Sequence record: PX969468.1
Source of the DNA: a phage
Length of the DNA stretch: 64,000 nucleotides
Direction: 5' to 3' (one strand)
In this document: in pieces, positions 2,730-55,145 of the stretch
Position numbering within the stretch: the first letter of the stretch is position 1
How the letters are laid out: the number at the start of each line of letters is the position of its first letter
Program-made: the position numbers and the translations under genes
The notes under the pieces: generated by a model
Databases searched by the model: none
Told to the model about the DNA's origin: nothing
The model's input: the letters and a program-made list of their open reading frames with translations, nothing else

Positions 2730-4220
2730 GTGGCTAAGTATGGATTGACAGAGGCTGGTTTCGTTATACCAACCCTAAATGACCTAATCGTTGAAACTAA
2801 GCAAAGCCTGATCCGTGCTTTTGGCGAAAACTTCAACGTACAGAGTAACTCCGTTGCAGATAAGCTGACCACTATCTTCAACGAGCGAGAGTATCAACTT
2901 ATTCTTATGGCAGCATCTGTATACGCATCGCAGACGCTGTATGGGGCAGAAGGTATTTACCTGGATGAGCTTCTTGGAAGACAGGGTATTTACCGAAGAG
3001 GCCGTTCTAAATCATCAGGTACCTGCCAGTTGACAATCAACACAACTGTGCCGTACAATATGATTTATGATTCCAAAACTTATACGCTGGACAGTGGCAA
3101 CTTTGTTCTTAGCAACGATGTGCAGGTGGCGGGAAATCTTATTGCTCACAGAATAAACGCTCCAGACCTAAGAATTGGGAAATACAACTTTCAAATTACC
3201 AACCAGACAGACGGAAGTATCAAAACAAAAAGTTTGGTTTTAACAGATAAGGCTCTGGACTCTTCTGATTTGCCAAGCTTTTACGGCGAGATTAAGCAAT
3301 TCATTGTCGATAATACAACCCTGCTGAATGATGATTTAATTCAGATAGATATGTTGACAGGGACGTTGTGGATAGGGTACAATTCGAATCTTGATCAGGT
3401 TGGACTTAATAGCAGGGTAGATTTCAGAGTATCCCCGATTGTAGGGGAAAGAACTATCACCCTAGATGTTATCGCTAACGAGGCTGGTGAGCTGTCAAGA
3501 GAGGCAGAAACCGTGACAACAATGTCACCTACTCCCAGCGGATTTATCAAGCTTACCAACCGAGAAAGATTCAATGAGGGTAGGGATGTTGAGAAAGACT
3601 CTGAGTATCGCTTAAGAGCTTCCAGCACTAAACAGCTGACATCTAAAGCTACCCGTCCTGCAATCCTTAGCGCTGTAAGCGAGGTGAAAGGTGTTGAAAA
3701 AGTAAGAGTGTTCTCTAACAACACCGATAAAACGGATGTGAAAGGTATACCACCTTATAAGTTTCAAGTGGTGGTGTTTGGTGGTGCAACAGAGGATATC
3801 TGTCAGGCGCTGTATCAAACCATAGCTTGCACAAACAGAACTTATGGGAATATCTTCTACGATATTACCACATCAGACGGTCAGACTGAAAGGATTTATT
3901 ACTCCAAGGCAAATACCTACCGCCTAGATGTAAGAATTACCTACTCAGGTGCTGCGCTTTCCACAACCGAAAAAGATGCCATTGTAGAGGCTCTTTTGCA
4001 GGTTGTTAACGGACTGGATGTTGCAGATACGTTGTACAATATCCAATTGGTTGGTGCTGCATCGGCTGCTGTGTCAATAGGCAGATTTAACAGACTTGTA
4101 ATTCAAGTCAAACCTGTGGGGGCCTCTGATGAAGCTTACACTACAAACGATATTGTTGCAAACATGACTGAGGTGTTTGACCTAGACGAAAGTAATATAA
4201 CTTTCCAACAAACTATTTAA
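2730..4220 (+). CDS. Virion structural protein (tail/baseplate region), function unassigned
   Basis: 496-aa ORF, GGAGG RBS, GTG start; sits inside tail-fibre module. Confidence 0.6.
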   Translation: MAKYGLTEAGFVIPTLNDLIVETKQSLIRAFGENFNVQSNSVADKLTTIFNEREYQLILMAASVYASQTLYGAEGIYLDELLGRQGIYRRGRSKSSGTCQLTINTTVPYNMIYDSKTYTLDSGNFVLSNDVQVAGNLIAHRINAPDLRIGKYNFQITNQTDGSIKTKSLVLTDKALDSSDLPSFYGEIKQFIVDNTTLLNDDLIQIDMLTGTLWIGYNSNLDQVGLNSRVDFRVSPIVGERTITLDVIANEAGELSREAETVTTMSPTPSGFIKLTNRERFNEGRDVEKDSEYRLRASSTKQLTSKATRPAILSAVSEVKGVEKVRVFSNNTDKTDVKGIPPYKFQVVVFGGATEDICQALYQTIACTNRTYGNIFYDITTSDGQTERIYYSKANTYRLDVRITYSGAALSTTEKDAIVEALLQVVNGLDVADTLYNIQLVGAASAAVSIGRFNRLVIQVKPVGASDEAYTTNDIVANMTEVFDLDESNITFQQTI

Positions 4221-4231
4221 GGCGGTGAGAT

Positions 4232-4918
4232 ATGGCAGAGATTAAGTCGGATGTCAACCACATCCACACTCTGCCAGATTTTGTTCAGGGAGGTCTTGAT
4301 TACCTGCCTGGGGATTTTCTGGCTGAGAAGGTTAATTTAGTCACATTCTTAACCGTGTACCTTAAAAGGTTGGAGAATGTTGATAAAATACTGGTAGGCT
4401 TGGCTGAAGGAAGATTGCTTAACAATGCCAGCGGGAGATACCTTGACGAAGTTGGTAATCAACTTGGTATCCTTAGGAATGGTCTTTCAGACGCGGATTT
4501 TCGTGCTACGCTGATTATTCAGCAGGCAGCATCATCAAGAGGTGGTACTCGCGAAGATGTCATCTCCACCTTACGACAGTTGTTCGGAAGAGATAATTTC
4601 GATACGTGGAAAGGTGACAATTTCAGGTTTGACATAAACATTAGAAAAACTTGCTTTGACATATTGCAGTCTATCGACCAGATCTTAGATATGCTGCCAT
4701 TGCCTTGTCATTTGCGTCTTACGGAATCGCAAGGGCAAGCTTTTGGTTTTGAAGGGGACTCTGCAGCTCTCGGCTTCGGATCAGTGTGGGAAGAAAACCA
4801 GTTCGGGGTTGGTGGGTTGGCTACTTTGTTATATGTTCCTGACGTAAGACCTGATTGGGACACCACAACTATTTATTGTGAAAGTATTACAGTAAACGCA
4901 ACTAGACAGGAGGGTTAA
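4232..4918 (+). CDS. Structural-module protein, function unknown
   Basis: 228-aa ORF, RBS GGCGGTGAG; stop overlaps next start (TAATG). Confidence 0.55.
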   Translation: MAEIKSDVNHIHTLPDFVQGGLDYLPGDFLAEKVNLVTFLTVYLKRLENVDKILVGLAEGRLLNNASGRYLDEVGNQLGILRNGLSDADFRATLIIQQAASSRGGTREDVISTLRQLFGRDNFDTWKGDNFRFDINIRKTCFDILQSIDQILDMLPLPCHLRLTESQGQAFGFEGDSAALGFGSVWEENQFGVGGLATLLYVPDVRPDWDTTTIYCESITVNATRQEG

Positions 4919-36279: not shown

Positions 36280-38347
36280 ATTTATGGCATCTGCATACAA
36301 CCGTTTCGGTGAGCCAAACCCGAAAGCAACTAAGTATAAAAGTGGGGGAAGTGTGAAACGAGACTATCGTGATGAAAAAGAAGTTGAAACTGTAGAGACT
36401 GTTTTAGAAAATACTAAAATTGTCCCTGTCCCACAACAAAATATCGGTCTGATGGCTGCACAATATTTTGGTGTGCGATCAGCATTGTCCCAAGAAGACG
36501 GTGTGACAGTCACTGCAACATATTTCCCATATTACGACCGCTACGGAAATCTGTCCGGTTTCAAAAAGCGTGACTGGACGATTCCTAAAGAGCAAAGGGG
36601 CCATTTCTCCGTTGTTGGCATCGTAAAGGCCAACTCCCAGATGTTTGGTCAAAAGCTGTGTGCATCTTCCAACAACCGTAAGCAGATTAACGTTTGTGAG
36701 GGAGAAGGTGATGTTATTGCAGCATGGCAGGCTGCATATCAGATACAAGTAAAAGGGATTCTCACCAACGCTAAAGCCCCGGCAAAGGTGAAGCAGTGGG
36801 CTAAAGAGGTCCAGGACGGGATCGACGCAGTTATCAACGGTGGTGATCTGGCAGGAAAACCCTGCCTGCCTTTTGTTGGAATTAACTGTGGATGTGCAAA
36901 CGCAGTAGATACTTTTGCAAACAATGAGAAGTTTATCCGTAGCTATGGAACAGTTGTGCTGGCAATGGATAACGATGCAGCTAACGAGGTAGAGAAGCAA
37001 AAACACGTCATTAAAGGTGTTGAGGCCACGCACAATATCGCAGCATTTTTGATGGCTGATAACGTTTACCACGTAGAATACCCTGGTGAAGTAAATGACC
37101 CTGACGGTGTAAAAGATATCCGAGACATGCTGAAGGCTAAAAAGCTGGAAGATATTGTCAACATGTTCCGGCACCCTGTTAAATATGTGCCTGATGCTGT
37201 GTCGGATTTAGAAGACTTCTCTATCGAATCTTTGCGGAAAAAGACTTCCAACGGGGTAGATATCAGCGCAGAGTTCCCAAAACTGCAAAAAATGCTAAAA
37301 GGCTTGCACAAAGGGACACTTGTAATGCTTACAGGTCCATCAGGAGGCGGTAAAACAACTGTAGCTAAAAAACTGGAACACTGTATTGCAAGATACCTAA
37401 TGGACCCGACATGCCAGAAGGCTGATGACTACGAAGAGGATGATCGTCTATGTATGATCCATCTTGAGGAGGACCCAGAGGAAGCAATTAACTCCTTGTA
37501 TGCAAACCAGTTAGGGTTCGATGTTAAAGAGTTTGTTGAAGATCCTAGCCAGTTTTTAACTGATCAAGAACACGCAGAGATTCACCAATCATGGGCAAAA
37601 GCTGGAAAAATCAAAGTGTTCAAACATTTCGGGTCTATTCCGGTGGACGAGTTGATTACCAAGCTTAAGCAAATGGTTTGCCTGTACCATTGTCGTTATA
37701 TTGTACTGGATCACCTGTCCATGGTAATTTCAGGGCTTAATGTTAAGGATGAGCGAAAAGAACTGGACATAGCTATGACCCAACTGGCTGCGTTTTGTAA
37801 GCAGTTTAATGTGTTTATCTTGGTGATCGCTCACCTCAAACGTACAGAGATTGTGCCTCCTAAAGACAAGGATGGTAACCCGTTACCTTTCTGGTATCCT
37901 GTGCGAAAAGAGAATTTGCGAGGATCGGCTGGGCTTGAACAGTTGAGTTGGGTAGTTATAGGTGTCGAGGCCGAAGAAATGGTGGATCGTTCTCGTGGAC
38001 GTGTCCGTCTGGTAGGTCTTAAAAACCGTCCAGCAAAAACTTTAGGTATTGCTGACACTTTGGTTATGGACCCGCATACAGGTAAGTTCCATGATGCCAG
38101 TAATTGGTACTGGGACAAAGAAATGCAAATGTTTACAGATGGAGAAGGTGGGGAGGTTGTTTGGAGACCTCAGGCTATGTTTGAGGATCAGGAGCATGCA
38201 GTTGTAGAAACACCTATGGGCAAGGTTGTGGCTGATAAGGTTGTAACTCCTACTGTTAAGCCTGTTGACACGCAGGAAGACCTCCAGTACGATGATCCGT
38301 CCTCTGACCCTGTTCCTGGTTTTGAAGACGATGAAACACCTTTTTAA
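36269..38347 (+). CDS. Replicative primase-helicase (DnaB/gp4-like helicase domain)
   Basis: Walker A LTGPSGGGKTT, Walker B IVLDHLSMV, RecA-like fold motifs; N-terminal domain putative primase. Confidence 0.7.
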   Translation: MGSKFMASAYNRFGEPNPKATKYKSGGSVKRDYRDEKEVETVETVLENTKIVPVPQQNIGLMAAQYFGVRSALSQEDGVTVTATYFPYYDRYGNLSGFKKRDWTIPKEQRGHFSVVGIVKANSQMFGQKLCASSNNRKQINVCEGEGDVIAAWQAAYQIQVKGILTNAKAPAKVKQWAKEVQDGIDAVINGGDLAGKPCLPFVGINCGCANAVDTFANNEKFIRSYGTVVLAMDNDAANEVEKQKHVIKGVEATHNIAAFLMADNVYHVEYPGEVNDPDGVKDIRDMLKAKKLEDIVNMFRHPVKYVPDAVSDLEDFSIESLRKKTSNGVDISAEFPKLQKMLKGLHKGTLVMLTGPSGGGKTTVAKKLEHCIARYLMDPTCQKADDYEEDDRLCMIHLEEDPEEAINSLYANQLGFDVKEFVEDPSQFLTDQEHAEIHQSWAKAGKIKVFKHFGSIPVDELITKLKQMVCLYHCRYIVLDHLSMVISGLNVKDERKELDIAMTQLAAFCKQFNVFILVIAHLKRTEIVPPKDKDGNPLPFWYPVRKENLRGSAGLEQLSWVVIGVEAEEMVDRSRGRVRLVGLKNRPAKTLGIADTLVMDPHTGKFHDASNWYWDKEMQMFTDGEGGEVVWRPQAMFEDQEHAVVETPMGKVVADKVVTPTVKPVDTQEDLQYDDPSSDPVPGFEDDETPF

Positions 38348-38405
38348 TGTTTAACCAAGAGTGGGAGGGGTAGTACAACCGCCTCCCCTTTAAGGAGAAC
38401 ACTTT

Positions 38406-40835
38406 ATGAGTATGTATAGCTTCGATTTTGAGGCCTCTGGGCTTTTGGAAGATCCAGACCTTTATTATCACTGCGGCCTGTTTAAAGCGTTGAATAAGAA
38501 CCGTTTTATGCTGTTCCTTCCTCTAAATGACCGCACACACTACTCCGAGGAGGATATAGAAAAGGCTAAGAACTTCATTCTGGCAAAGAAAACTCTTTAT
38601 AAAGATTTTGAAGTTCGCATAGCAGATTTTTCAGAGTTGGAAGGTTGGCTTACAGGAAATTCTGACTGGTCACCAACAGCTTTGAACTGCCATAACTGCT
38701 ACAGTTATGACTTTATGCTGATGGAAAGATTATCTGGTATTCATTTTGATATGTTCCGTGATCCTAAATGTATGGGGACTATCAACGATCACCAGGTTAA
38801 CCTGTTTGATACGTTGGCGATGAGCCGAATCTTGTGGCCTGATCGCCCTTTACCAAAAGGTTGTCCGGACTCTGTATTCAACCCGGTTACTAAGAAAATG
38901 CAGCCTGTTGGTCCTCACGGCCTTATGGCATGGGGCTACGCCCTTGGTAACCAGAAAGTTCAAATTGATGACTGGCGCGATCTTCCGTTATGGAAGTATG
39001 TGGATCGTGTATTTGAGGACGTTATCATCCAGGAGCTGCTCTGGAAAGAGCTGGTAGCGGAATCAAAAGGTGTATTCTACGGCAAATCTGACATGCAGAA
39101 CTTTATGTACGATCCTGCCAAAGAGAAGCCGAAAGGGTTCAAGAAGATCACCTGGAAGAACGCATTACGTCGAGGCATGTTGCAGCACTTCCTGATGGAG
39201 CTGCAGGCCCGTCAGGGTGTATACTTCGACATAGATGGAGCTATTGCTTTACGTGACCGTTGCGATGCGTGGATGAAAGAAATCGCTGATCGTGTTGAAC
39301 CACAACTGCCTTTAAAAGAGCTGTCAATGTCTCAGCGGCCCAAGTTCCCTGAAAAGCCGTTTAACCAAGATGGGACAATCTCTAATAATGGTTGGAAATG
39401 GTTAAAAGATAAGCTTGGCTATCCTGTGGACATGAGTGCTTTAGAGTTCAAAGCCCCACCTAAGCGAGCATTTACCTCTACAGGAGATGTCAGTAAGATG
39501 GGGATAAAATGGTGTGAAGAGATGGGCTGCAAAGACCACGATAAGATGGCTGATTTCTTGAGAGGCTATATTAAGGGCACCTCCACACCACAACCTTTAC
39601 CTAAAGAGCTAATGGATCAGGCAATAAGTGATCTACAGCAGAAGCGAATGCCGGACTGCAAGATACCTATGAAAATCAGCAATCAGGACGACATTAAGCG
39701 ATACCTGATCAGTGCTGGTTGGCTTCCGACAATGTGGAGAACTAAGGATGTAACTAAAGACAGCAAGAAGAAAGCTTTACCTGATGCAGATGTTGATGCA
39801 CGAGTATATGCATATATGGACGAGCTTTTGGAGTCAGAGTATTGTGACCTAATTATCAACTTCTGGAACAAAACTGATGCTAAGTTCCAGACAACCGTGC
39901 ACAAGTTCCGAAGCTTTCCTAACTCCGAAAGGATTAAAAAGGAAGTATTCGGGAAAATACGTAGAAAAGCTAGGGCACTTATTACTTCTCCGCAACTGAA
40001 AGATACGTTTGGACACCTGTGTCCGAATCTTGAAAAATTGAACGGAGAGATGGCTAAAGATATCGTCTTATGGTTATCATTGCGAAACCGCAGATCGGTA
40101 CTTGATCCAATCAAGGAGGATAAGGTTGACACTGGTCTTCTTAATCACCCACGTTTGAAGATTGACCATAAGCTTCCTGCTAAAAGCTCTGGATTAACAA
40201 ACACTTCCAGACAGAAACACAGTATTTGTGCAAACATGCCTAAACCCTCTCCTAAAGTGGTTATGGGTAAAGAGATGCGTAGCTTGTGGGGTGTTCCTCC
40301 AGGATACTTTGAGATCGGTATCGACGGGTCCAACTTAGAGCAGCTTATCGGGGCTTGGGGTGCCTTTGAGTTCGACAACGGCCTGTATTACGATGTTGTA
40401 AGTAACGGAGACGCACACCAAAACAATGCTGAGGCATATACAAAAGTAGCAGGCAGAGAGGTGTCCCGTAACGACGGTAAACCTATCACGTATGGGGTTA
40501 TGTACGGGGCACAAAAAGATAAAGTTGCAGATATGCTGGACATCTCTCCAGAGTTGGGACAAAGGGTAATCGATGCGCTTTGGGATGCCAACCCTGGTCT
40601 TAAGGGCCGTAAAGAGGATCTGGAGAAATTCTGGGAAGCAACGGGTAAGAAGTTTATCTACTCTTTTGATGGTCATGCCATCTGGACCCGATCTAAACAC
40701 TCTTTACTTAATGCATACCAACAGAATGGTGGTGCATCGCTGTGTGACTTAGTTGGGATACTCATGCACCACCAAATGGTGAAGCGTGGGTGGTACGATG
40801 AAGGTGTTCGTCGTATTATTTATTACCATAAATAA
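38406..40835 (+). CDS. DNA polymerase, family A
   Basis: Exo I FDFEASG, motif A IGIDGSNLEQL, motif B RNDGKPITYGVMYG. Confidence 0.85.
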   Translation: MSMYSFDFEASGLLEDPDLYYHCGLFKALNKNRFMLFLPLNDRTHYSEEDIEKAKNFILAKKTLYKDFEVRIADFSELEGWLTGNSDWSPTALNCHNCYSYDFMLMERLSGIHFDMFRDPKCMGTINDHQVNLFDTLAMSRILWPDRPLPKGCPDSVFNPVTKKMQPVGPHGLMAWGYALGNQKVQIDDWRDLPLWKYVDRVFEDVIIQELLWKELVAESKGVFYGKSDMQNFMYDPAKEKPKGFKKITWKNALRRGMLQHFLMELQARQGVYFDIDGAIALRDRCDAWMKEIADRVEPQLPLKELSMSQRPKFPEKPFNQDGTISNNGWKWLKDKLGYPVDMSALEFKAPPKRAFTSTGDVSKMGIKWCEEMGCKDHDKMADFLRGYIKGTSTPQPLPKELMDQAISDLQQKRMPDCKIPMKISNQDDIKRYLISAGWLPTMWRTKDVTKDSKKKALPDADVDARVYAYMDELLESEYCDLIINFWNKTDAKFQTTVHKFRSFPNSERIKKEVFGKIRRKARALITSPQLKDTFGHLCPNLEKLNGEMAKDIVLWLSLRNRRSVLDPIKEDKVDTGLLNHPRLKIDHKLPAKSSGLTNTSRQKHSICANMPKPSPKVVMGKEMRSLWGVPPGYFEIGIDGSNLEQLIGAWGAFEFDNGLYYDVVSNGDAHQNNAEAYTKVAGREVSRNDGKPITYGVMYGAQKDKVADMLDISPELGQRVIDALWDANPGLKGRKEDLEKFWEATGKKFIYSFDGHAIWTRSKHSLLNAYQQNGGASLCDLVGILMHHQMVKRGWYDEGVRRIIYYHK

Positions 40836-41102
40836 CATTGTGGCTTCATAGAGTAATCTATGTCGAATAACCTCTTTAACTGCGGGAAGCCTAAACCTTA
40901 TGGCAAGGTAATCCGCAACGAAGCGCTCAAAAGAGCGAACGCTCAGAGGCCATTCCGAAAGGAAGTAGACCAGCAAGTGCGGTCGAAATGGGAGGATTCC
41001 TGTGGTTGCTTATCATAGGAATATGAGATGGTCCGATCCTACGTGAAAACGTATGGCTATGCACGTAATGGTGCGGGGTAGCTTAACGACCTACCTGAAC
41101 TA

Positions 41103-41459
41103 TTGGATGAGTACCAACTTCAAGTGCCTGACACACCGAAGTATAAGACTGTGTACACCTTCGACACAATTGAAGAACTGGAAGCATTTAAGGCAGAACA
41201 GGAGGCCAAACTTCATGTGTTCGACGGTCATAAGTACAAAAAGGCACGCAAAGATGAGGACGGAAACGAAGTAGTTGACAGGGACGGAAACACGGTGTAC
41301 GATCCTATCCTGAACGATGACGGAAAGCTTGAACTTATCTGGAGCCCTGTGGGCGAAATGGTGGTGCATTGCTTCTGGCAAGCTTCTAAAATGATGGGCG
41401 TTCCGTTCCAGATCACAGGTGAATACTTGTGTGGTCGTAACTGGGGCGATTGTCACTAA
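41103..41459 (+). CDS. Hypothetical protein (118 aa), start uncertain
   Basis: ORF; weak RBS. Confidence 0.4.
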   Translation: MDEYQLQVPDTPKYKTVYTFDTIEELEAFKAEQEAKLHVFDGHKYKKARKDEDGNEVVDRDGNTVYDPILNDDGKLELIWSPVGEMVVHCFWQASKMMGVPFQITGEYLCGRNWGDCH

Positions 41460-41508
41460 TGTAAACTATCAACACACGGAAGTGTTGTTAGATAGAGAGG
41501 AGACTTTT

Positions 41509-41793
41509 ATGGTAGTAGAACCGACAAAAACATTTACCTCCATGACTATTCCTGTTATTATGCAGGTAGAGTGCGTTCAGGTGTCTCAAGTGTGGCCAGG
41601 TACTAAAATTCCAACAGGGCCTGATTTCTTTCAGGTCGGCAAAGTGTATAATGTCTGGAAGGCACCGGATTGTTACCCTTTCATTAAAGATGACCGTGGA
41701 ATGTTATGGTATCTGGGAAATGATTTGACACTGCATCTTGGAAATGCTATTATTGCAGTGTTCCGGCTCAACAAGAAGGAGGCAGATCAATGA
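41509..41793 (+). CDS. Small protein, paralog family A (member 1)
   Basis: RBS AGAGGAG; C-terminal DDRGMLWYLGNDLTLHLGNAIIAVF shared with next two genes. Confidence 0.45.
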   Translation: MVVEPTKTFTSMTIPVIMQVECVQVSQVWPGTKIPTGPDFFQVGKVYNVWKAPDCYPFIKDDRGMLWYLGNDLTLHLGNAIIAVFRLNKKEADQ

Positions 41794-42017
41794 CAACTTT
41801 GGTTAAAGCGACGTTTGTAGAAGAAAAGATGACAGACCTGTCATTCTTTGAAGAAGGTAAGGTCTACAAGGTTTACTACGATAAGGATCGCAGGAACAAT
41901 ATGATCGAAGACGAGGAAGGTGTTGCCTGGTTTATCTCCCATCTGGCAAATGGTGAGTATCATATCTATGGAACCACCCTACTTGCCAAGTTTGTAGCTG
42001 TTGAAGAGGATCTATGA
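41790..42017 (+). CDS. Small protein, paralog family A (member 2)
   Basis: DEEGVAWFISHLANGEYHIYGTTLLAKFV. Confidence 0.45.
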   Translation: MTTLVKATFVEEKMTDLSFFEEGKVYKVYYDKDRRNNMIEDEEGVAWFISHLANGEYHIYGTTLLAKFVAVEEDL

Positions 42018-42208
42018 AAGTAAAGTATCTGGCTGAAGGTATGAGTAGGTATTTTACCCTCGGAGAGGAGTATTGGCCCTTTACGGAAAATGGAGATGTA
42101 TACGTGAAGGATGACCAAGGTGTGCCGTGGTTTCTGCACCATAATGGGTTGGGGTATTCCATCTACTGCGGTGCAGTGAACAACACAACCCTTGCAGAGT
42201 TTGTCTAG
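42014..42208 (+). CDS. Small protein, paralog family A (member 3)
   Basis: DDQGVPWFLHHNGLGYSIYCGAV. Confidence 0.45.
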   Translation: MKVKYLAEGMSRYFTLGEEYWPFTENGDVYVKDDQGVPWFLHHNGLGYSIYCGAVNNTTLAEFV

Positions 42209-42218
42209 AGGAGGCAGA

Positions 42219-42590
42219 ATGTTAGTAAAAGGTACCCACACAGTCAAGCAACGTATTGAAGTTGAGATCGATGATTGTGAGCTGAAGCATATTTTGCGGT
42301 CATGCTCCAACGTTTTGCTCCTTAGTATTCTCCAGGAGCGAGCGGAGAACGAGTTCTTAAATGCACTGGCAGGTCGCCCCGGTGACTTCTGTGTGCGTAA
42401 GCGTGGTGACAACAAGTCATGGTTGTGGGAAATCGATGCCGACTGGGATTACCACAAAAATGAGGGTATAGATGAGCCTATTCGTGAATTGACAGACAAA
42501 GAGATTCAGATGTACAATGAAGTTTGTCATTGGGCAACACGCCAACAAATTTACCTCGACCCTGTGTGGCTGATTGAAAATAGCCATTGA
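42219..42590 (+). CDS. Hypothetical protein (123 aa)
   Basis: ATG after GAGGAGG. Confidence 0.45.
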   Translation: MLVKGTHTVKQRIEVEIDDCELKHILRSCSNVLLLSILQERAENEFLNALAGRPGDFCVRKRGDNKSWLWEIDADWDYHKNEGIDEPIRELTDKEIQMYNEVCHWATRQQIYLDPVWLIENSH

Positions 42591-42666
42591 CAAGAAGTAA
42601 GATTAGATATAAGATGCTTCACACAAACAGAGCGTTGATTTTTAAATAACCAAGGAGACTGCCAAG

Positions 42667-42921
42667 ATGAAAATCACTTTGAAGCCAGAAGAAGTTGCAA
42701 ATGACCGAGCTTTTAAGGATTGCACAGTCGGTGCAATTTATGAAGCAGAGTTTTGTGAGAACCCTCTGGTAAAAGCCCTTCTGGAAGAAGGGGCCCCTTT
42801 ATCACAAGAAGAGATTGATGAGCTGGAAAACTCAGCACAGTGCCTTACCTTTAAAGACGATGAAGGAGACTCTGTCTTGTGCACTGTTAACGAAGTAGTT
42901 TTTGTAAAACCTGAACATTAA
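42667..42921 (+). CDS. Small acidic protein, paralog family B (member 1)
   Basis: AFKDCT...DDEGDSVLCT motif shared with 42985-43245 and 43944-44189. Confidence 0.45.
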   Translation: MKITLKPEEVANDRAFKDCTVGAIYEAEFCENPLVKALLEEGAPLSQEEIDELENSAQCLTFKDDEGDSVLCTVNEVVFVKPEH

Positions 42922-42924
42922 TAC

Positions 42925-42961
42925 TTGACAACAGTGATAGGGCCTAATATAATGGCCCTAT
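42925..42961 (+). promoter_or_regulatory. Consensus sigma70 promoter with -10 embedded in an 8-bp-arm palindrome
   Basis: TTGACA, 17-nt spacer, TATAAT; ATAGGGCC-TAATATAAT-GGCCCTAT. Confidence 0.6.
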
Positions 42962-42984
42962 CAAAACGAAAGGGGACCACAGCA

Positions 42985-43245
42985 ATGACTAAACAATATC
43001 AACGAATTAAAGCCAAGGTTAAGCCAGACTATCTGGAGAAGGACTCTGCTTTTCGGGACTGCACAGCGGACAAAGTTTACACAGGGGCCGTCCTGTTGAA
43101 CGATGAACTTGAAGTAGATGTTCTGGGTAAAGAGGCCGTTATCGAGGATGACAACGGTGACTGTGTTTTCTGCACCACACGGGAGCTAGAAGTTTTAGAA
43201 TACTTCGGTGAAATCTTCAACTCCTTAGACGAAGAGGAAGCGTGA
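42985..43245 (+). CDS. Small acidic protein, paralog family B (member 2)
   Basis: AFRDCT...DDNGDCVFCT; ATG after AAAGGGGA. Confidence 0.45.
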   Translation: MTKQYQRIKAKVKPDYLEKDSAFRDCTADKVYTGAVLLNDELEVDVLGKEAVIEDDNGDCVFCTTRELEVLEYFGEIFNSLDEEEA

Positions 43246-43634
43246 TGAAAAATATTTGGGATATTGATATCTTTGAAGCCTCTAAGCTTGACGGTGCTGA
43301 TGGAGTGATTATGGTGTCTGATGGCAAGGCAACACTAACTTCCGGAGATACCATCTATGCCTTGGACGAGCTGGCGCTTCTGAAATCTACCGGTAACACT
43401 TTAGAGGAGCGTCTTCAAGGCTTCGCCTTCAAAGAAGGCACAAATACCGCCATGATGGGTACCACACGGACAGTCCAGGTTGGTAACGGTGTCTATATGA
43501 TCATTGCTGTGTGTCCTAAATTCAGCAACGTCAACAAAGATGATGCTGACGCTGTCAACGATGTGGTTGTTCTCTTCGTGGGTGACGCTATGGCAGACCT
43601 GATGAATGCAGGAGAAGCGGCAAATGAAGACTGA
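43242..43634 (+). CDS. Hypothetical protein (130 aa)
   Basis: ORF. Confidence 0.45.
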   Translation: MMKNIWDIDIFEASKLDGADGVIMVSDGKATLTSGDTIYALDELALLKSTGNTLEERLQGFAFKEGTNTAMMGTTRTVQVGNGVYMIIAVCPKFSNVNKDDADAVNDVVVLFVGDAMADLMNAGEAANED

Positions 43635-43926
43635 AAACATTACCCCAGCAGGGTTCTTAAAAGTATACCGTGAACTGCTATATACTACAGAGGACAGTGT
43701 TCTAGAGTATCCAGAATATCTTTTGCTGTATAAGTATCTACAGGAAGCTGGTGAAAATCTGCCAGTTAGTGCAGAAGGTGGTCCGAACTGGATATACAGC
43801 GCATGGAGAAAGGTTGACATTCTCCCAGATCCAGGTAAAGATATGGTAGTTTGGCAGCTTATCAACAACATCGGGATTCCAATCTTCGATGAAGCTGTTA
43901 AAATCTATTTTGAACTTGACGATTAA
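43624..43926 (+). CDS. Hypothetical protein (100 aa)
   Basis: ATG after GGAGAAG, overlaps upstream stop. Confidence 0.4.
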   Translation: MKTENITPAGFLKVYRELLYTTEDSVLEYPEYLLLYKYLQEAGENLPVSAEGGPNWIYSAWRKVDILPDPGKDMVVWQLINNIGIPIFDEAVKIYFELDD

Positions 43927-43943
43927 TATCAGGAGACCTTAAG

Positions 43944-44189
43944 ATGGCTGAAGCAGTTGCTCGCGCGGGACAGAAAGTACGTTGTGTTGAAGTAGGTTTT
44001 GGTGGTAAAGGGTGTCAAAACTTGACTCAAGGTAAGGAATACGCTGTTATTTCTGGTGGTGGCGACGAAAGTATTGTGTTCGAGGGCCACATCCTGGATG
44101 CTGAAAACTTTGAAATCTTTGACGACGATGGGGATCCGATCACCTGCCTGCTGGACGGGAATTGGGGAACTTTCGAAGTGATTGGCTAA
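43944..44189 (+). CDS. Small acidic protein, paralog family B (member 3)
   Basis: DDDGDPITCL motif. Confidence 0.45.
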   Translation: MAEAVARAGQKVRCVEVGFGGKGCQNLTQGKEYAVISGGGDESIVFEGHILDAENFEIFDDDGDPITCLLDGNWGTFEVIG

Positions 44190-44272
44190 CAAATACCTAT
44201 TGTAATTTACAGAAGGGGATGCTAAAATAGTGTCTCCTTCTATGTTGTTCAAATAAAATCGGAGATTCCATA

Positions 44273-44638
44273 ATGGAACAAATGAACGATCAAGCGTCGG
44301 TTGCGATGAACGAGCAAGAACAACCTCAAGAATTTTTCTTAGGGTTAAGTAAAGATCAAGTGTCTCTTCTGCTAGTGCTTTCTTCTTTCATGGGAAGACT
44401 TCAGGAGCTCACACAACAACCGGAGGCTGAACAATTATTTCAGGCTCTGCGTGAAGAAGAAAAATATCGTCGTTTGGACTATGCCTTAGGTTGGGTAGCT
44501 CAACAACGAGATATGCTGATGGCCCTCTCTGGGACCACAAGTTTTGCAATGGGCCTGTTGGCTCAAGTTCAGGACAAATTAATTCAAGCAGGGTTTGCAC
44601 ACACGGCAAACACTAACGAAGAACAAGGAGACAAATAA
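44273..44638 (+). CDS. Hypothetical protein (121 aa)
   Basis: promoter-like TTGTAA-17-TAAAAT upstream; RBS GGAGA. Confidence 0.45.
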   Translation: MEQMNDQASVAMNEQEQPQEFFLGLSKDQVSLLLVLSSFMGRLQELTQQPEAEQLFQALREEEKYRRLDYALGWVAQQRDMLMALSGTTSFAMGLLAQVQDKLIQAGFAHTANTNEEQGDK

Positions 44639-45864
44639 TGAGCGTTATTCAACAATTCGCTAACCCGATGAATCCGCGTGAAACTGTTTTACTGGCTCAC
44701 GGCATGATCAAGCGTGTTAGCATCAAGCCTATCAAAGGTGCTGATCCTACAACAGGTATTAAAACCACTGTGTGGCAAGGTAAGAAAATTGAGTCCAGCC
44801 ACACCATCTCTTTACTGATTTCTGAACTGGATTCCTCTGATAACCTACTTCAAGGTGGTGAAGAAGTTTGGATCAGTATGGGCGATAAGCTGCTTAAACC
44901 GGGTCATCAAGACTCTGTCTCTGTTAAAATTGATGACAAGTGGGAAACCGTAACGCCAGGATGGATCGTAAATATCCCTTTGAAGGCAAACGAGCATAAC
45001 GGTAAGACCTACTACAAAGGCTCACTGGCTAAGATGGTTAAGCTGGGTGCAGGAGAGGCTCCAGCAGCGACTCAGCAGCAAAAACCGCAACAAGGTGCAC
45101 AATCACAAGGCCAGAAGCAGAAACATCAGCAGAATGCCAATCAGGACGTTTTACGCATCTATGGTGATGTGACTCAGATTGTTGGCAACGTGGTTACTGT
45201 TAATGACCACAAGATTGGCGAAGGTGCTATGGTTGTAACTGATGAGCAGCTTAAAGACCTGGTGGTAGGTGGTCGTGTTGCAGCCATTGTTGACAAAGAC
45301 ACCGGAAACATTATCAGTGGTTTCAAGGCCTATCCTCCTAAGGCAGAGAACGGCACTCAAGGCTCTGGTGGCAAGCGTAAATCCTCTTACGACCCTATCG
45401 GTGTGGAAACGGGGCATAGCATCAATGCGTTGCAAATCATCCTGGATCGCGGGTTTAAGGTAGACGACCCACTAGGAGTGGCTAAAACACTACACGTAGT
45501 CACTATTGAGCTTAAGAAAGAGTATGCTCAAGCCACCAACCGAACTGAAGATGAAGTAGGTGCCAGTGTCGGTAATGCGGTGTTGAACGCTTGTCGCCGT
45601 ATTGACAAGAAAACGAAAGTTGATGATTTTGCAGCGGCAATTACTGCAGAAGCAAAAGATGTCTTGACTAATCTGGCTGAGCCGTTGTACGATTGGATCA
45701 AGAACGGTGCTGGGTCAACTGACCATCAAGAACCTCAGGCTGCCAAACAGGAAGCAGCTCCACAGCAAAACACTGTAGACGCTCCTCCTGTAAATGATGA
45801 GGAAGATGACCCAATGGATCAGAATCCAGCACAGTATGAGTTCGATGACTCGATCCCCTTCTGA
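44638..45864 (+). CDS. ssb: Single-stranded DNA-binding protein-like, with acidic C-terminal tip
   Basis: C-terminus ...EFDDSIPF resembles SSB acidic tip (DDDIPF); Gln-rich low-complexity linker. Confidence 0.55.
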   Translation: MSVIQQFANPMNPRETVLLAHGMIKRVSIKPIKGADPTTGIKTTVWQGKKIESSHTISLLISELDSSDNLLQGGEEVWISMGDKLLKPGHQDSVSVKIDDKWETVTPGWIVNIPLKANEHNGKTYYKGSLAKMVKLGAGEAPAATQQQKPQQGAQSQGQKQKHQQNANQDVLRIYGDVTQIVGNVVTVNDHKIGEGAMVVTDEQLKDLVVGGRVAAIVDKDTGNIISGFKAYPPKAENGTQGSGGKRKSSYDPIGVETGHSINALQIILDRGFKVDDPLGVAKTLHVVTIELKKEYAQATNRTEDEVGASVGNAVLNACRRIDKKTKVDDFAAAITAEAKDVLTNLAEPLYDWIKNGAGSTDHQEPQAAKQEAAPQQNTVDAPPVNDEEDDPMDQNPAQYEFDDSIPF

Positions 45865-45872
45865 GTCCAGTT

Positions 45873-46451
45873 ATGAAATGCAAACGTTGTGGGGAGGACA
45901 AGGAGGCCTCCGACTTCTATACCAGCAACAAATCAACGTGCAAAGAGTGTTGCAAGAAGGCCAGTAGAGAGTCTGACCAATTTGCTAGAGACTCTTCAGA
46001 AAAAGGTGTAATACGCGTGTTGTACAAGGCTCAAAAGTGCAACAGCAAGCAAAGAGGTCACCCTCCTCCGACTTACACCAAGAAAGAGTTTAAGGATTGG
46101 CTATACCTAAACGGTTACAAAGAGTTGTATGACCAATGGGTAGCCAGCGGATACGACAAAAGGAAAAAGCCTTCTTGTGACAGGATAGATGATTTCAAAG
46201 GATACTCTTTTGATAATATCCGTTTAACGACTTGGGGAGAAAATAAAGACAAGCAGACAGAGGATATTCTATTGCATAGAAGCACCAGCGGTAGACGGTG
46301 TAAAAACGTAAGAAGGCTGGACAGGAATGGCAACATTCTCAAAGAGTGGGTATCTCACAACTCTTGTAGGAGAGAAACCGGAATATGTGTTGATTACTAC
46401 ATTCATGAAAAAATTCCAGCCCCCGATGGGTACTTCTATGAATACTTTTAA
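45873..46451 (+). CDS. HNH homing endonuclease
   Basis: N-terminal CxxC..CxxC zinc motif; PSCDRIDDFKGYSFDNIRLTTWGEN resembles HNH_3 core. Confidence 0.6.
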   Translation: MKCKRCGEDKEASDFYTSNKSTCKECCKKASRESDQFARDSSEKGVIRVLYKAQKCNSKQRGHPPPTYTKKEFKDWLYLNGYKELYDQWVASGYDKRKKPSCDRIDDFKGYSFDNIRLTTWGENKDKQTEDILLHRSTSGRRCKNVRRLDRNGNILKEWVSHNSCRRETGICVDYYIHEKIPAPDGYFYEYF

Positions 46452-46466
46452 CACCTAGTTAACATA

Positions 46467-46495
46467 GCCCTGCCCGAAAGGGTGGGGCATTTTTG
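46467..46495 (+). terminator. Intrinsic terminator (identical stem-loop to 35469-35497)
   Basis: GCCCTGCCC-GAAA-GGGTGGGGC followed by ATTTTTG. Confidence 0.7.
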
Positions 46496-46513
46496 TATAA
46501 GGAGATCTGAAAA

Positions 46514-46930
46514 ATGACATTAGAAGATATCATTGTTAAACCTGAGAACTATAACCAATACAATCTATCAACCCAATCTGTGGACCTTGGATGCGCCACT
46601 GTCAGTGCGTGGCTGGTTAACGGAAAAGAGTTGGATAAATGCTTAGAAGCTCACATGACTGTGAACAAGTTCCTTGATGAAAATACTCACTGGCTGGAAG
46701 GTGCAGGTGTATACGCTTCGTGGCTAGAGAGTATGGGATTTGACTACCAATCTGAAGAGGGGTGGTGGAGCTATCTGGCTATCTGTCCAGAGACATTGCA
46801 ATGCTTCATGAAATATTCTGAAGATTTGGAGTACCGGGCGGTGGTTGACAGTGCTATTGCTCGTTATAGCCGTAAACCTTTTTCCCACGACATTAAAACT
46901 GTGGAAGAATTTGTTGAAGTTTTCTGTTGA
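46514..46930 (+). CDS. Hypothetical protein (138 aa)
   Basis: ORF with RBS AAGGAGA. Confidence 0.45.
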   Translation: MTLEDIIVKPENYNQYNLSTQSVDLGCATVSAWLVNGKELDKCLEAHMTVNKFLDENTHWLEGAGVYASWLESMGFDYQSEEGWWSYLAICPETLQCFMKYSEDLEYRAVVDSAIARYSRKPFSHDIKTVEEFVEVFC

Positions 46931-47026
46931 CACAGGTTGTAAGGTGTGCAATTATAACCTTGTAGAGCTGGAGGATGTGATGAACGAAGAAAACTGGGAT
47001 GTGTAACTAACAGGAGGCCACTGCCC

Positions 47027-54884: not shown

Positions 54885-55145
54885 ATGCGTAAATTAAAAA
54901 ATTTTGATAAAGTTGATATTGTCCTGAATAATTTTTACTACTGCAATAACAAGGCCGTTTGGTGGCGTGATAGTTCCACCGATAAAGTCAAGGCGCGCTT
55001 TCTCCAGGGGCACTGGCAAGGCCGCCCAGTGATTAAAATCATGGGGCAATTGGTAGCGTTTAAAAATTGCCGCCGTGTTGATGACGTTGAAGAGATTTTA
55101 AACATTTTGCGCCACAATAATTTAAAAAATAGTGTTGACAAGTAA
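54885..55145 (+). CDS. Early-region protein (86 aa)
   Basis: RBS AAGGAG; promoter-like TTGACA-N16-TATACT at 54827-54856. Confidence 0.5.
   Translation: MRKLKNFDKVDIVLNNFYYCNNKAVWWRDSSTDKVKARFLQGHWQGRPVIKIMGQLVAFKNCRRVDDVEEILNILRHNNLKNSVDK

Follow-up and report, generated by a model that had tools for sequence, protein, structure and literature searches.

A tandem pair of small acidic Vequintavirus proteins with a predicted SH3-like barrel fold, and a neighbouring third protein of a separate family

Small acidic phage proteins that are made early and bind host factors are a familiar kind of protein, and T7 Gp2, T7 Ocr, T4 Arn, anti-CRISPR proteins and other anti-defence proteins all belong to it. 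The SH3-like fold, for its part, is represented by the SH3 domain, the Mib/HERC2 domain, the C-terminal domain of retroviral integrase, the KOW domain and the B. subtilis SPbeta protein YorP (PDB 2HEQ), the members with which we compare the proteins described here. Vequintaviruses are common candidates for therapy and biocontrol, and are represented in the BASEL collection. In the PHROGs database, the two proteins of central interest, which we call B1 and B2, are placed in separate families of unknown function, and neither their paralogy nor their fold is recorded there. With moderate confidence, we favour an overall explanation in which B1 and B2 are paralogs built on a small barrel, the similar-looking protein B3 stands apart from them, and the B1/B2 pair would act early as protein-binding modules.

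The DNA under study is a stretch of 64,000 nucleotides (record PX969468.1; hereafter the window) from a Vequintavirus, an rV5-like E. coli myophage. Over bases 41000-45000, the window shares 96% identity with Escherichia phage RudolfGeigy, in which every gene of the region is annotated 'hypothetical protein', and at least 80% of this interval is covered in 113 of the 132 matching phage records. The ORFs of B1, B2 and B3 are all present on the plus strand, within a dense run of small genes that leads from the DNA polymerase gene to an SSB-like gene (Table 1). Two conserved genes, unrelated to B1, B2 or B3, lie between B2 and B3 (43245-43926) and have overlapping start and stop codons; the second of them, the DUF7238/phrog_1451 gene, has homologs in other genera of the Vequintavirinae, and in those genera the annotated gene order upstream of the SSB-like gene matches. 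An Rfam scan of positions 38000-47000 gave no match in the B1-B3 region; its only result was a group I intron within the polymerase gene. The initial annotation had described the three products as small and acidic, which they are (net charge -10 to -13, pI 4.1-4.2). Nearly all neighbouring gene products are acidic too, however, and acidity thus does not define the family. Being common to unrelated neighbours, it also says little about what B1 and B2 do.

Table 1. Features of the small-gene run and its borders, with positions counted from the first base of the window.
Feature	Position	Strand	Remarks
DNA polymerase gene	38406-40835, second exon ending 41459		borders the small-gene run
Family A	41509-41793, 41790-42017, 42014-42208	+	three tandem small paralogs; similar GxxY...DDxG motif
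Sigma-70-like promoter upstream of B1	42587..42615	+	TTGACA-17-TAAGAT; consensus scan 10/12
B1 (copy 1)	42667-42921	+	84 aa, pI 4.17, phrog_12544
Perfect-consensus promoter upstream of B2	42925..42953	+	TTGACA-17-TATAAT; consensus scan 12/12, 17-nt spacer
Hairpin/palindrome at the B2 promoter	42935..42963	+	10-bp stem bracketing the -10 hexamer; -18.3 kcal/mol, z -3.7
B2 (copy 2)	42985-43245	+	86 aa, pI 4.20, phrog_11936
Gene after B2	43245-43634	+	phrog_8284; conserved, unrelated to B1, B2 and B3
Gene before B3	43624-43926	+	DUF7238/phrog_1451; conserved, unrelated to B1, B2 and B3
B3 (copy 3)	43944-44189	+	81 aa, pI 4.10, phrog_4927
Terminator-like hairpin after B3	44211..44241	+	consensus scan only; weak T-tract
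SSB-like gene	44638-45864		408-aa protein with SSB-like acidic tail

That B1 and B2 are true tandem paralogs with an SH3-like small β-barrel fold is the part of this explanation of which we are most confident. The relationship between these two copies, which the initial annotation had already suspected, is borne out by pairwise comparison: BLASTP aligned them with an E value of 5e-9 and 30% identity across 77 aa, and the Smith-Waterman comparison gave a z score of 11.5, its score being reached in none of 2000 shuffles. Indeed, when 1055 ORFs of a local database were searched with jackhmmer, either protein as query recruited its partner and nothing else. Each protein matches its own PHROG from end to end (E 2.5e-56 for B1 and 3.6e-55 for B2) and also cross-matches the PHROG of the other as well as phrog_17459, with E values of 1e-4 to 1e-5, and a profile built from both collects orthologs down to approximately 50% identity. 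The N-terminal motif AF(K/R)DCT is found at exactly two sites in a six-frame pattern search of the window, namely as AFKDCT in B1 (42709-42726) and as AFRDCT in B2 (43048-43065). It had been ascribed to all three copies, but this stands for B1 and B2 only, as the nearest string in B3 is GCQNLT.

Further evidence comes from a metagenomic relative (L021), in which a single 80-aa gene, P0032, replaces both B1 and B2. Its N-terminus derives from B1 and its C-terminus from B2, fused in frame, with the junction at a CAGGTG shared within the DCTxG codons. The chimera thus shows that B1 and B2 align in register and that natural two-to-one copy variation occurs, and the two genes can still recombine into one hybrid gene. 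Because the identity at the junction extends over only ~7 nt, assembly collapse is an unlikely source of P0032. In three divergent viral contigs (L004-L006), the polymerase is ~73% identical and the small proteins are ~50% identical to those of the window, and the order polymerase, family A-like genes, B1, B2, two conserved genes, B3 and SSB-like gene is kept. Since both B1 and B2 are retained in the same gene order at this distance, their duplication is old; it is older than the split between Vequintavirus and this uncultivated sister lineage of ~50% identity.

All three genes are conserved across the genus. For each of them, 116-119 phage records contain the gene, B1 and B2 occur in practically all Vequintavirus genomes that have been sequenced, and no copy-number variation within Vequintavirus was found among these records; the departures observed are occasional truncated B1 alleles and the single B1/B2 chimera of the sister lineage. 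With dN/dS values of 0.05-0.40 across the three genes (0.05-0.30 for B3), B1, B2 and B3 are under purifying selection and core to the genus Vequintavirus. They are confined to Vequintavirus and its sister lineage, and in other genera of the Vequintavirinae the flanking conserved genes are kept and different small genes occupy the B positions.

The AlphaFold2 model of B1 (pLDDT 86.2, from an alignment of 22 sequences) has strands at residues 2-5, 25-30, 59-63, 69-73 and 77-79, and helices at residues 7-12, 33-40 and 47-56. Its five-stranded barrel topology superposes on known SH3-like members, and B1 is accordingly modelled as an SH3-like small β-barrel with a helical insertion at residues ~31-58. 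When the model was searched against BFVD, the best match was a B1 ortholog, and the second-best, which is the best non-self match, was a 101-aa rV5_ev146 protein (E 4.7e-5) that is 28% identical to B1 and that we infer to be the ortholog of B2. This match, together with the homology between B1 and B2, suggests an SH3-like fold for B2 as well. When the two proteins are aligned, the main difference is an insertion of ~16-25 aa that B1 carries between its second and third strands and that B2 lacks; it corresponds to the two helices of the model. This two-helix insertion of B1 takes the place of the short n-Src loop of SH3 domains. No SH3, KOW or Mib Pfam profile matched B1, B2 or B3 at E values up to 1, and in our reading the canonical ligand-binding residues of SH3 domains are not recognisable in the sequence.

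In the same model, the DDxGD motif of B1 lies at the turn joining strands 3 and 4, and its conservation may thus be largely structural. The motif is part of the longer C-terminal pattern D(D/E)xGDx(V/I)xC(T/L), which had been reported for all three copies and is indeed there in each: a six-frame translation search found it as DDEGDSVLCT in B1 (42856-42885), DDNGDCVFCT in B2 (43147-43176) and DDDGDPITCL in B3 (44121-44150), and nowhere else in the window. From composition, ~4e-5 occurrences would be expected, but the pattern was defined post hoc, and this number is hence no fair test. The restriction of the pattern to these three ORFs is one of the points in favour of the original proposal, namely that B1, B2 and B3 form one paralog family in which an N-terminal and a C-terminal cysteine would make up a metal-binding pair or, as a variant of it, a redox pair. 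The other is that every full-length B1 or B2 sequence has C19 and C72 (B1 numbering), with further cysteines in the orthologs: B1 orthologs have additional conserved C29 and C59, and divergent B2 orthologs have up to six cysteines (CxxxxCxxCxC plus two more).

The remaining cysteine data speak against such a pair. C19 and C72 are the only two cysteines that are invariant in B1 and B2, and P0058, a 159-aa relative of B1 made up of two tandem domains and encoded on a 1-kb contig, has no equivalent of C72 in either domain. The N-terminal cysteine of B3 does not align with that of B1 and B2, and its own orthologs have another residue in place of its C-terminal cysteine (DDAGDLIVGV), as have most of its relatives from Aeromonas phage and from an unrelated viral contig (L018). 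Conserved histidines and CxxC knuckles are absent from B1 and B2, the conserved Cys/His ligands fall short of four, and no metal-binding family in Pfam or NCBIfam matched B1, B2 or B3. A metal site in B1 and B2 is thus unsupported by the sequences, and given also the position of B3 described below, we consider a three-member family with a metal-binding or redox cysteine pair very improbable.

As for B3, it belongs to a separate family, and what its sequence has in common with B1 and B2 appears to be confined to the DDxGDx(V/I)xC hairpin and a strand motif, TxGxxY. It matches a different PHROG, phrog_4927, with an E value of 1.2e-27, and this PHROG is more widely distributed than those of B1 and B2, with members in Aeromonas phage and on an unrelated 48-kb viral contig. 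Absence of pairwise similarity had been named at the outset as the observation that would speak against the proposed family, and the outcome differs between the pairs: the similarity of B1 and B2 is significant, while that of B3 to either is not. BLASTP of B1 against B3 gave an E value of 0.023 over a 12-aa hairpin only (shuffle p 0.015), and that of B2 against B3 an E value of 0.72 (shuffle p 0.09). Nor was B3 recruited by jackhmmer from B1 or B2 among the 1055 ORFs of the local database, and HMM searches linked it to B1 and B2 at E values of ~1 only. An exhaustive search of 1.84 billion representative proteins with the family B profile returned 18 matches, and B3 was not among them. Several long multi-repeat proteins did match this profile (P0048, P0049, P0051-53 and P0055-56); we set them aside as apparently repeat-driven false positives, a verdict read from P0048 and P0052 only, in which the repeats end in '..TDAKGCTTT' or '..GEDVTCTYT'. 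In the opposite direction, jackhmmer from B3 recruited its own orthologs, a 71-aa ORF on the 48-kb contig mentioned above and three Aeromonas phage ORFs (L019), but neither B1, B2 nor family A. The AlphaFold model of B3 is all-β and of low confidence (pLDDT 56), and gave no BFVD match at an E value below 0.01; likewise, tblastn with a divergent B3 ortholog gave no match in the phage collection. B3 is probably a small, all-β protein family. Lacking the N-terminal motif, having a PHROG of its own, not being recruited in the profile searches and giving borderline profile-profile scores, it does not belong to the three-member paralog family that had been proposed.

These profile-profile scores bear on a broader proposal, namely that the three genes of family A, which are interlinked by all-vs-all BLASTP, shuffle tests and jackhmmer, descend together with B1, B2 and B3 from one SH3-like barrel gene by serial tandem duplication in the replication module, so that only the GxxY and DDxG motifs survive. 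Each of the six ORFs, like an additional gene of one divergent contig (L005), has the two motifs in unchanged order and at a similar distance from each other. By hhalign, the combined B1/B2 profile matched B3 with P 3.7e-4 (probability 36%), with TxGxxY and DDxGD in register, and family A matched B3 with P 9e-4 (probability 23%), as compared to P 0.07-0.9 for 18 control pairs of unrelated neighbouring families. In addition, P0058 matches B1 (E 2e-8) and, weakly, a divergent B3 ortholog (E 3e-4), and B3 and family A have weak common cross-matches to phrog_10169 and, via the L018 relative, to phrog_3523. The direct comparison of family A with B1/B2 was not significant, however (P 0.069), HMM searches stayed at E ~1, the poor B3 model without BFVD matches does not support a common fold, and short β-hairpin motifs like DDxG can converge. 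We also obtained an hhalign probability of 84% after adding P0058 to the B3 profile, and rejected it as circular, P0058 itself being a B1 relative. Common descent of all six genes is thus a possibility that we doubt but take seriously, and B3 may at most be a remote relative, about equally distant from family A and from the B1/B2 pair. An extension of it would make the six genes an adaptor set on one diverged SH3-like barrel, each with a different host or replisome partner, with the cysteine pair of B1 and B2 (4-6 cysteines in some orthologs) serving as a metal or redox switch for partner binding; this we hold to be improbable.

Returning to B1 and B2 as a pair separate from B3, we looked at the signals from which they might be expressed. 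B1 would be expressed from its own sigma-70-type promoter, which is conserved in close Vequintavirus relatives and absent from the divergent lineage (L004/L005), where B1 overlaps the upstream gene. The perfect-consensus promoter noted earlier between copies 1 and 2 holds up on scanning, with all 12 consensus positions matched, and is conserved: its hexamers and their spacing are invariant in the lineage with ~50% identical proteins, where the spacer sequence has changed. The hairpin predicted at this promoter is the strongest among the near-consensus promoters of the window (-18.3 kcal/mol, as compared to -13.6 or weaker), and in the divergent lineage, where the arms are entirely different in sequence, the same hairpin is predicted (-18.8 kcal/mol, z -4.7). 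From B2 through the two genes that follow it to B3, start and stop codons overlap or lie almost side by side, and the promoter would drive these four genes as a tight unit headed by B2, with the terminator-like hairpin after B3 as the possible end of this transcription unit. The GenBank-style start of B2, an ATG at 42952, falls within the -10 hexamer, and two contigs of the sister lineage (L004/L006) do not have it; we therefore place the start at the ATG at 42985, which is conserved and lies behind a Shine-Dalgarno sequence. From the match of the promoters to consensus, host RNA polymerase probably transcribes B1-B3 in the early or middle phase of infection. In the literature on Vequintavirus transcriptomics, paralogs and small-protein function, we found nothing specific to B1-B3.

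Database searches gave few leads to function. None of the six small proteins (B1, B2, B3 and the three of family A) had a significant match in Pfam, NCBIfam, PADLOC or the PDB sequences, there being no PADLOC family for any of them, and their PHROG matches are all labelled as of unknown function. Tentatively, we propose that B1 and B2 could be early-expressed protein-binding modules, a suggestion drawn from their modelled fold, size and charge and from the absence of catalytic and cofactor motifs: without such a motif, with a fold typical of binding modules and too acidic for direct contact with nucleic acids, they would bind a protein of the host or of the phage and so act stoichiometrically in host takeover or replication. 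A different use of the same features would be as DNA mimics, that is, acidic decoys like Ocr and Arn, or as nucleic-acid-binding barrels of the KOW, Sm or integrase C-terminal domain type. The strong acidity of B1 and B2 (net charge -12 and -13) and the location of their genes within the replication module are in line with this, but a net charge as negative as -12 speaks against direct contact with nucleic acids, and mimicry is hardly indicated by an acidity that unrelated neighbours show as well, by a globular barrel of 85 aa, which is small for the purpose, or by comparison with known mimics, to which no similarity was found. We therefore give both the mimic and the nucleic-acid-binding possibility very little credence.

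In summary, more than 100 Vequintavirus genomes can have their annotation corrected and refined, in that two 'hypothetical proteins' are recognised as paralogs with a predicted SH3-like fold, the start codon of B2 moves from within the -10 hexamer to position 42985, and the proposed third member, B3, is shown to lie outside the B1/B2 family. As a conserved pair of small proteins behind strong, presumably early promoters, B1 and B2 are worth including in screens based on deletion or interaction. They were previously uncharacterised, but the kind of phage protein they represent is already known, and current understanding is not challenged. No sequence or structural similarity of B1 and B2 to T7 Gp2, Ocr, T4 Arn or anti-CRISPR proteins was found, and the comparison with them is one of functional analogy only. 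Within these bounds, the putative binding modules B1 and B2 would resemble proteins of the T7 Gp2, Ocr and T4 Arn type in being small and acidic, in having strong promoters of the early type, in lying among accessory genes and in their narrow taxonomic range.

The -10 hexamer of the perfect-consensus promoter that separates copy 1 and copy 2 of the family B proteins is flanked on both sides by a hairpin with a 10-bp stem (42935-42963; -18.3 kcal/mol, z -3.7). None of the near-consensus promoters elsewhere in the window folds as strongly (-13.6 kcal/mol or weaker, against -18.3 kcal/mol). In the sister lineage, represented by viral contigs with small proteins about 50% identical, the arms have a wholly different sequence, yet the hairpin is still kept (-18.8 kcal/mol). 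Because the arm sequences changed while the fold was retained, this comparison points to selection acting on the pairing. The hairpin could belong to the copy 1 transcript, as a 3' or processing element of that RNA, or it could be an operator. As for promoters in general, at least 15 with 11/12 or 12/12 matches lie on the + strand of the window, and the only 12/12 consensus promoter in the window besides the one at 42925 is TTGACA-16-TATAAT at 55135.

The same hexamer also bears on the start of copy 2. GenBank records such as RudolfGeigy place it at ATG 42952, within the -10 hexamer (97 aa), a codon that the sister lineage lacks. ATG 42985, which is preceded by AAGGGGA and gives a product of 86 aa, is the start that is conserved. 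In the metagenomic relative L021, one in-frame gene with the N-terminus of copy 1 and the C-terminus of copy 2, joined at a CAGGTG common to both paralogs, stands in place of the two copies and the intervening promoter. One sister-lineage contig (L005) carries an extra gene between the copies.

Features in the window and in related contigs
Feature	Location	Remarks
Group I intron in DNA polymerase gene	window 40820-41055	Rfam RF00028, 64.7 bits, E 5.6e-15
Family A members	window 41509-41793, 41790-42017, 42014-42208	
408-aa protein	window 44638-45864	phrog_4477, unknown function
Extra 136-aa gene	L005:6285-6695	between copies 1 and 2; phrog_14592 (label: virion structural protein)
Chimeric gene	L021:5001-5243	Logan ERR14040474, 124.8-kb contig
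Copy 3 family (phrog_4927) ORFs	L019:1348-1611, 2420-2737, 2979-3269	Aeromonas phage phiA050

The product of this extra gene also has the GxxY...DDDG pattern, at its N-terminus. The family A proteins carry a GxxY...DDxGxxW motif that recalls family B. The initial annotation had described family A as three tandem paralogs (41509-42208), and this is confirmed by BLASTP, shuffle tests and jackhmmer, which all link them. In the unrelated phage phiA050, three ORFs of the copy 3 family, near one another, lie directly upstream of the SSB gene, and this family thus has its own local expansion outside the window's phage.

Upstream of family A, the DNA polymerase gene is interrupted by a group I intron. 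The match of the ORF at 41103-41459 is to a family of phage DNA polymerases, at their C-terminal end, and in the RudolfGeigy annotation the polymerase is a join of two pieces. In the sister-lineage contig L004, an HNH endonuclease gene (4034-4540) lies between the two polymerase segments. Sixteen GenBank records (MG0656xx) named 'Campylobacter phage', with C. jejuni as stated host, match this region of the E. coli Vequintavirus at ~95% identity, which suggests that their hosts are wrongly labelled or that the phages are contaminants.

Downstream of copy 3, the 408-aa protein is kept among Vequintavirinae genera at 27-42% identity. Its last residues, ...EFDDSIPF, resemble the acidic tip found at the C-terminus of bacterial SSB.
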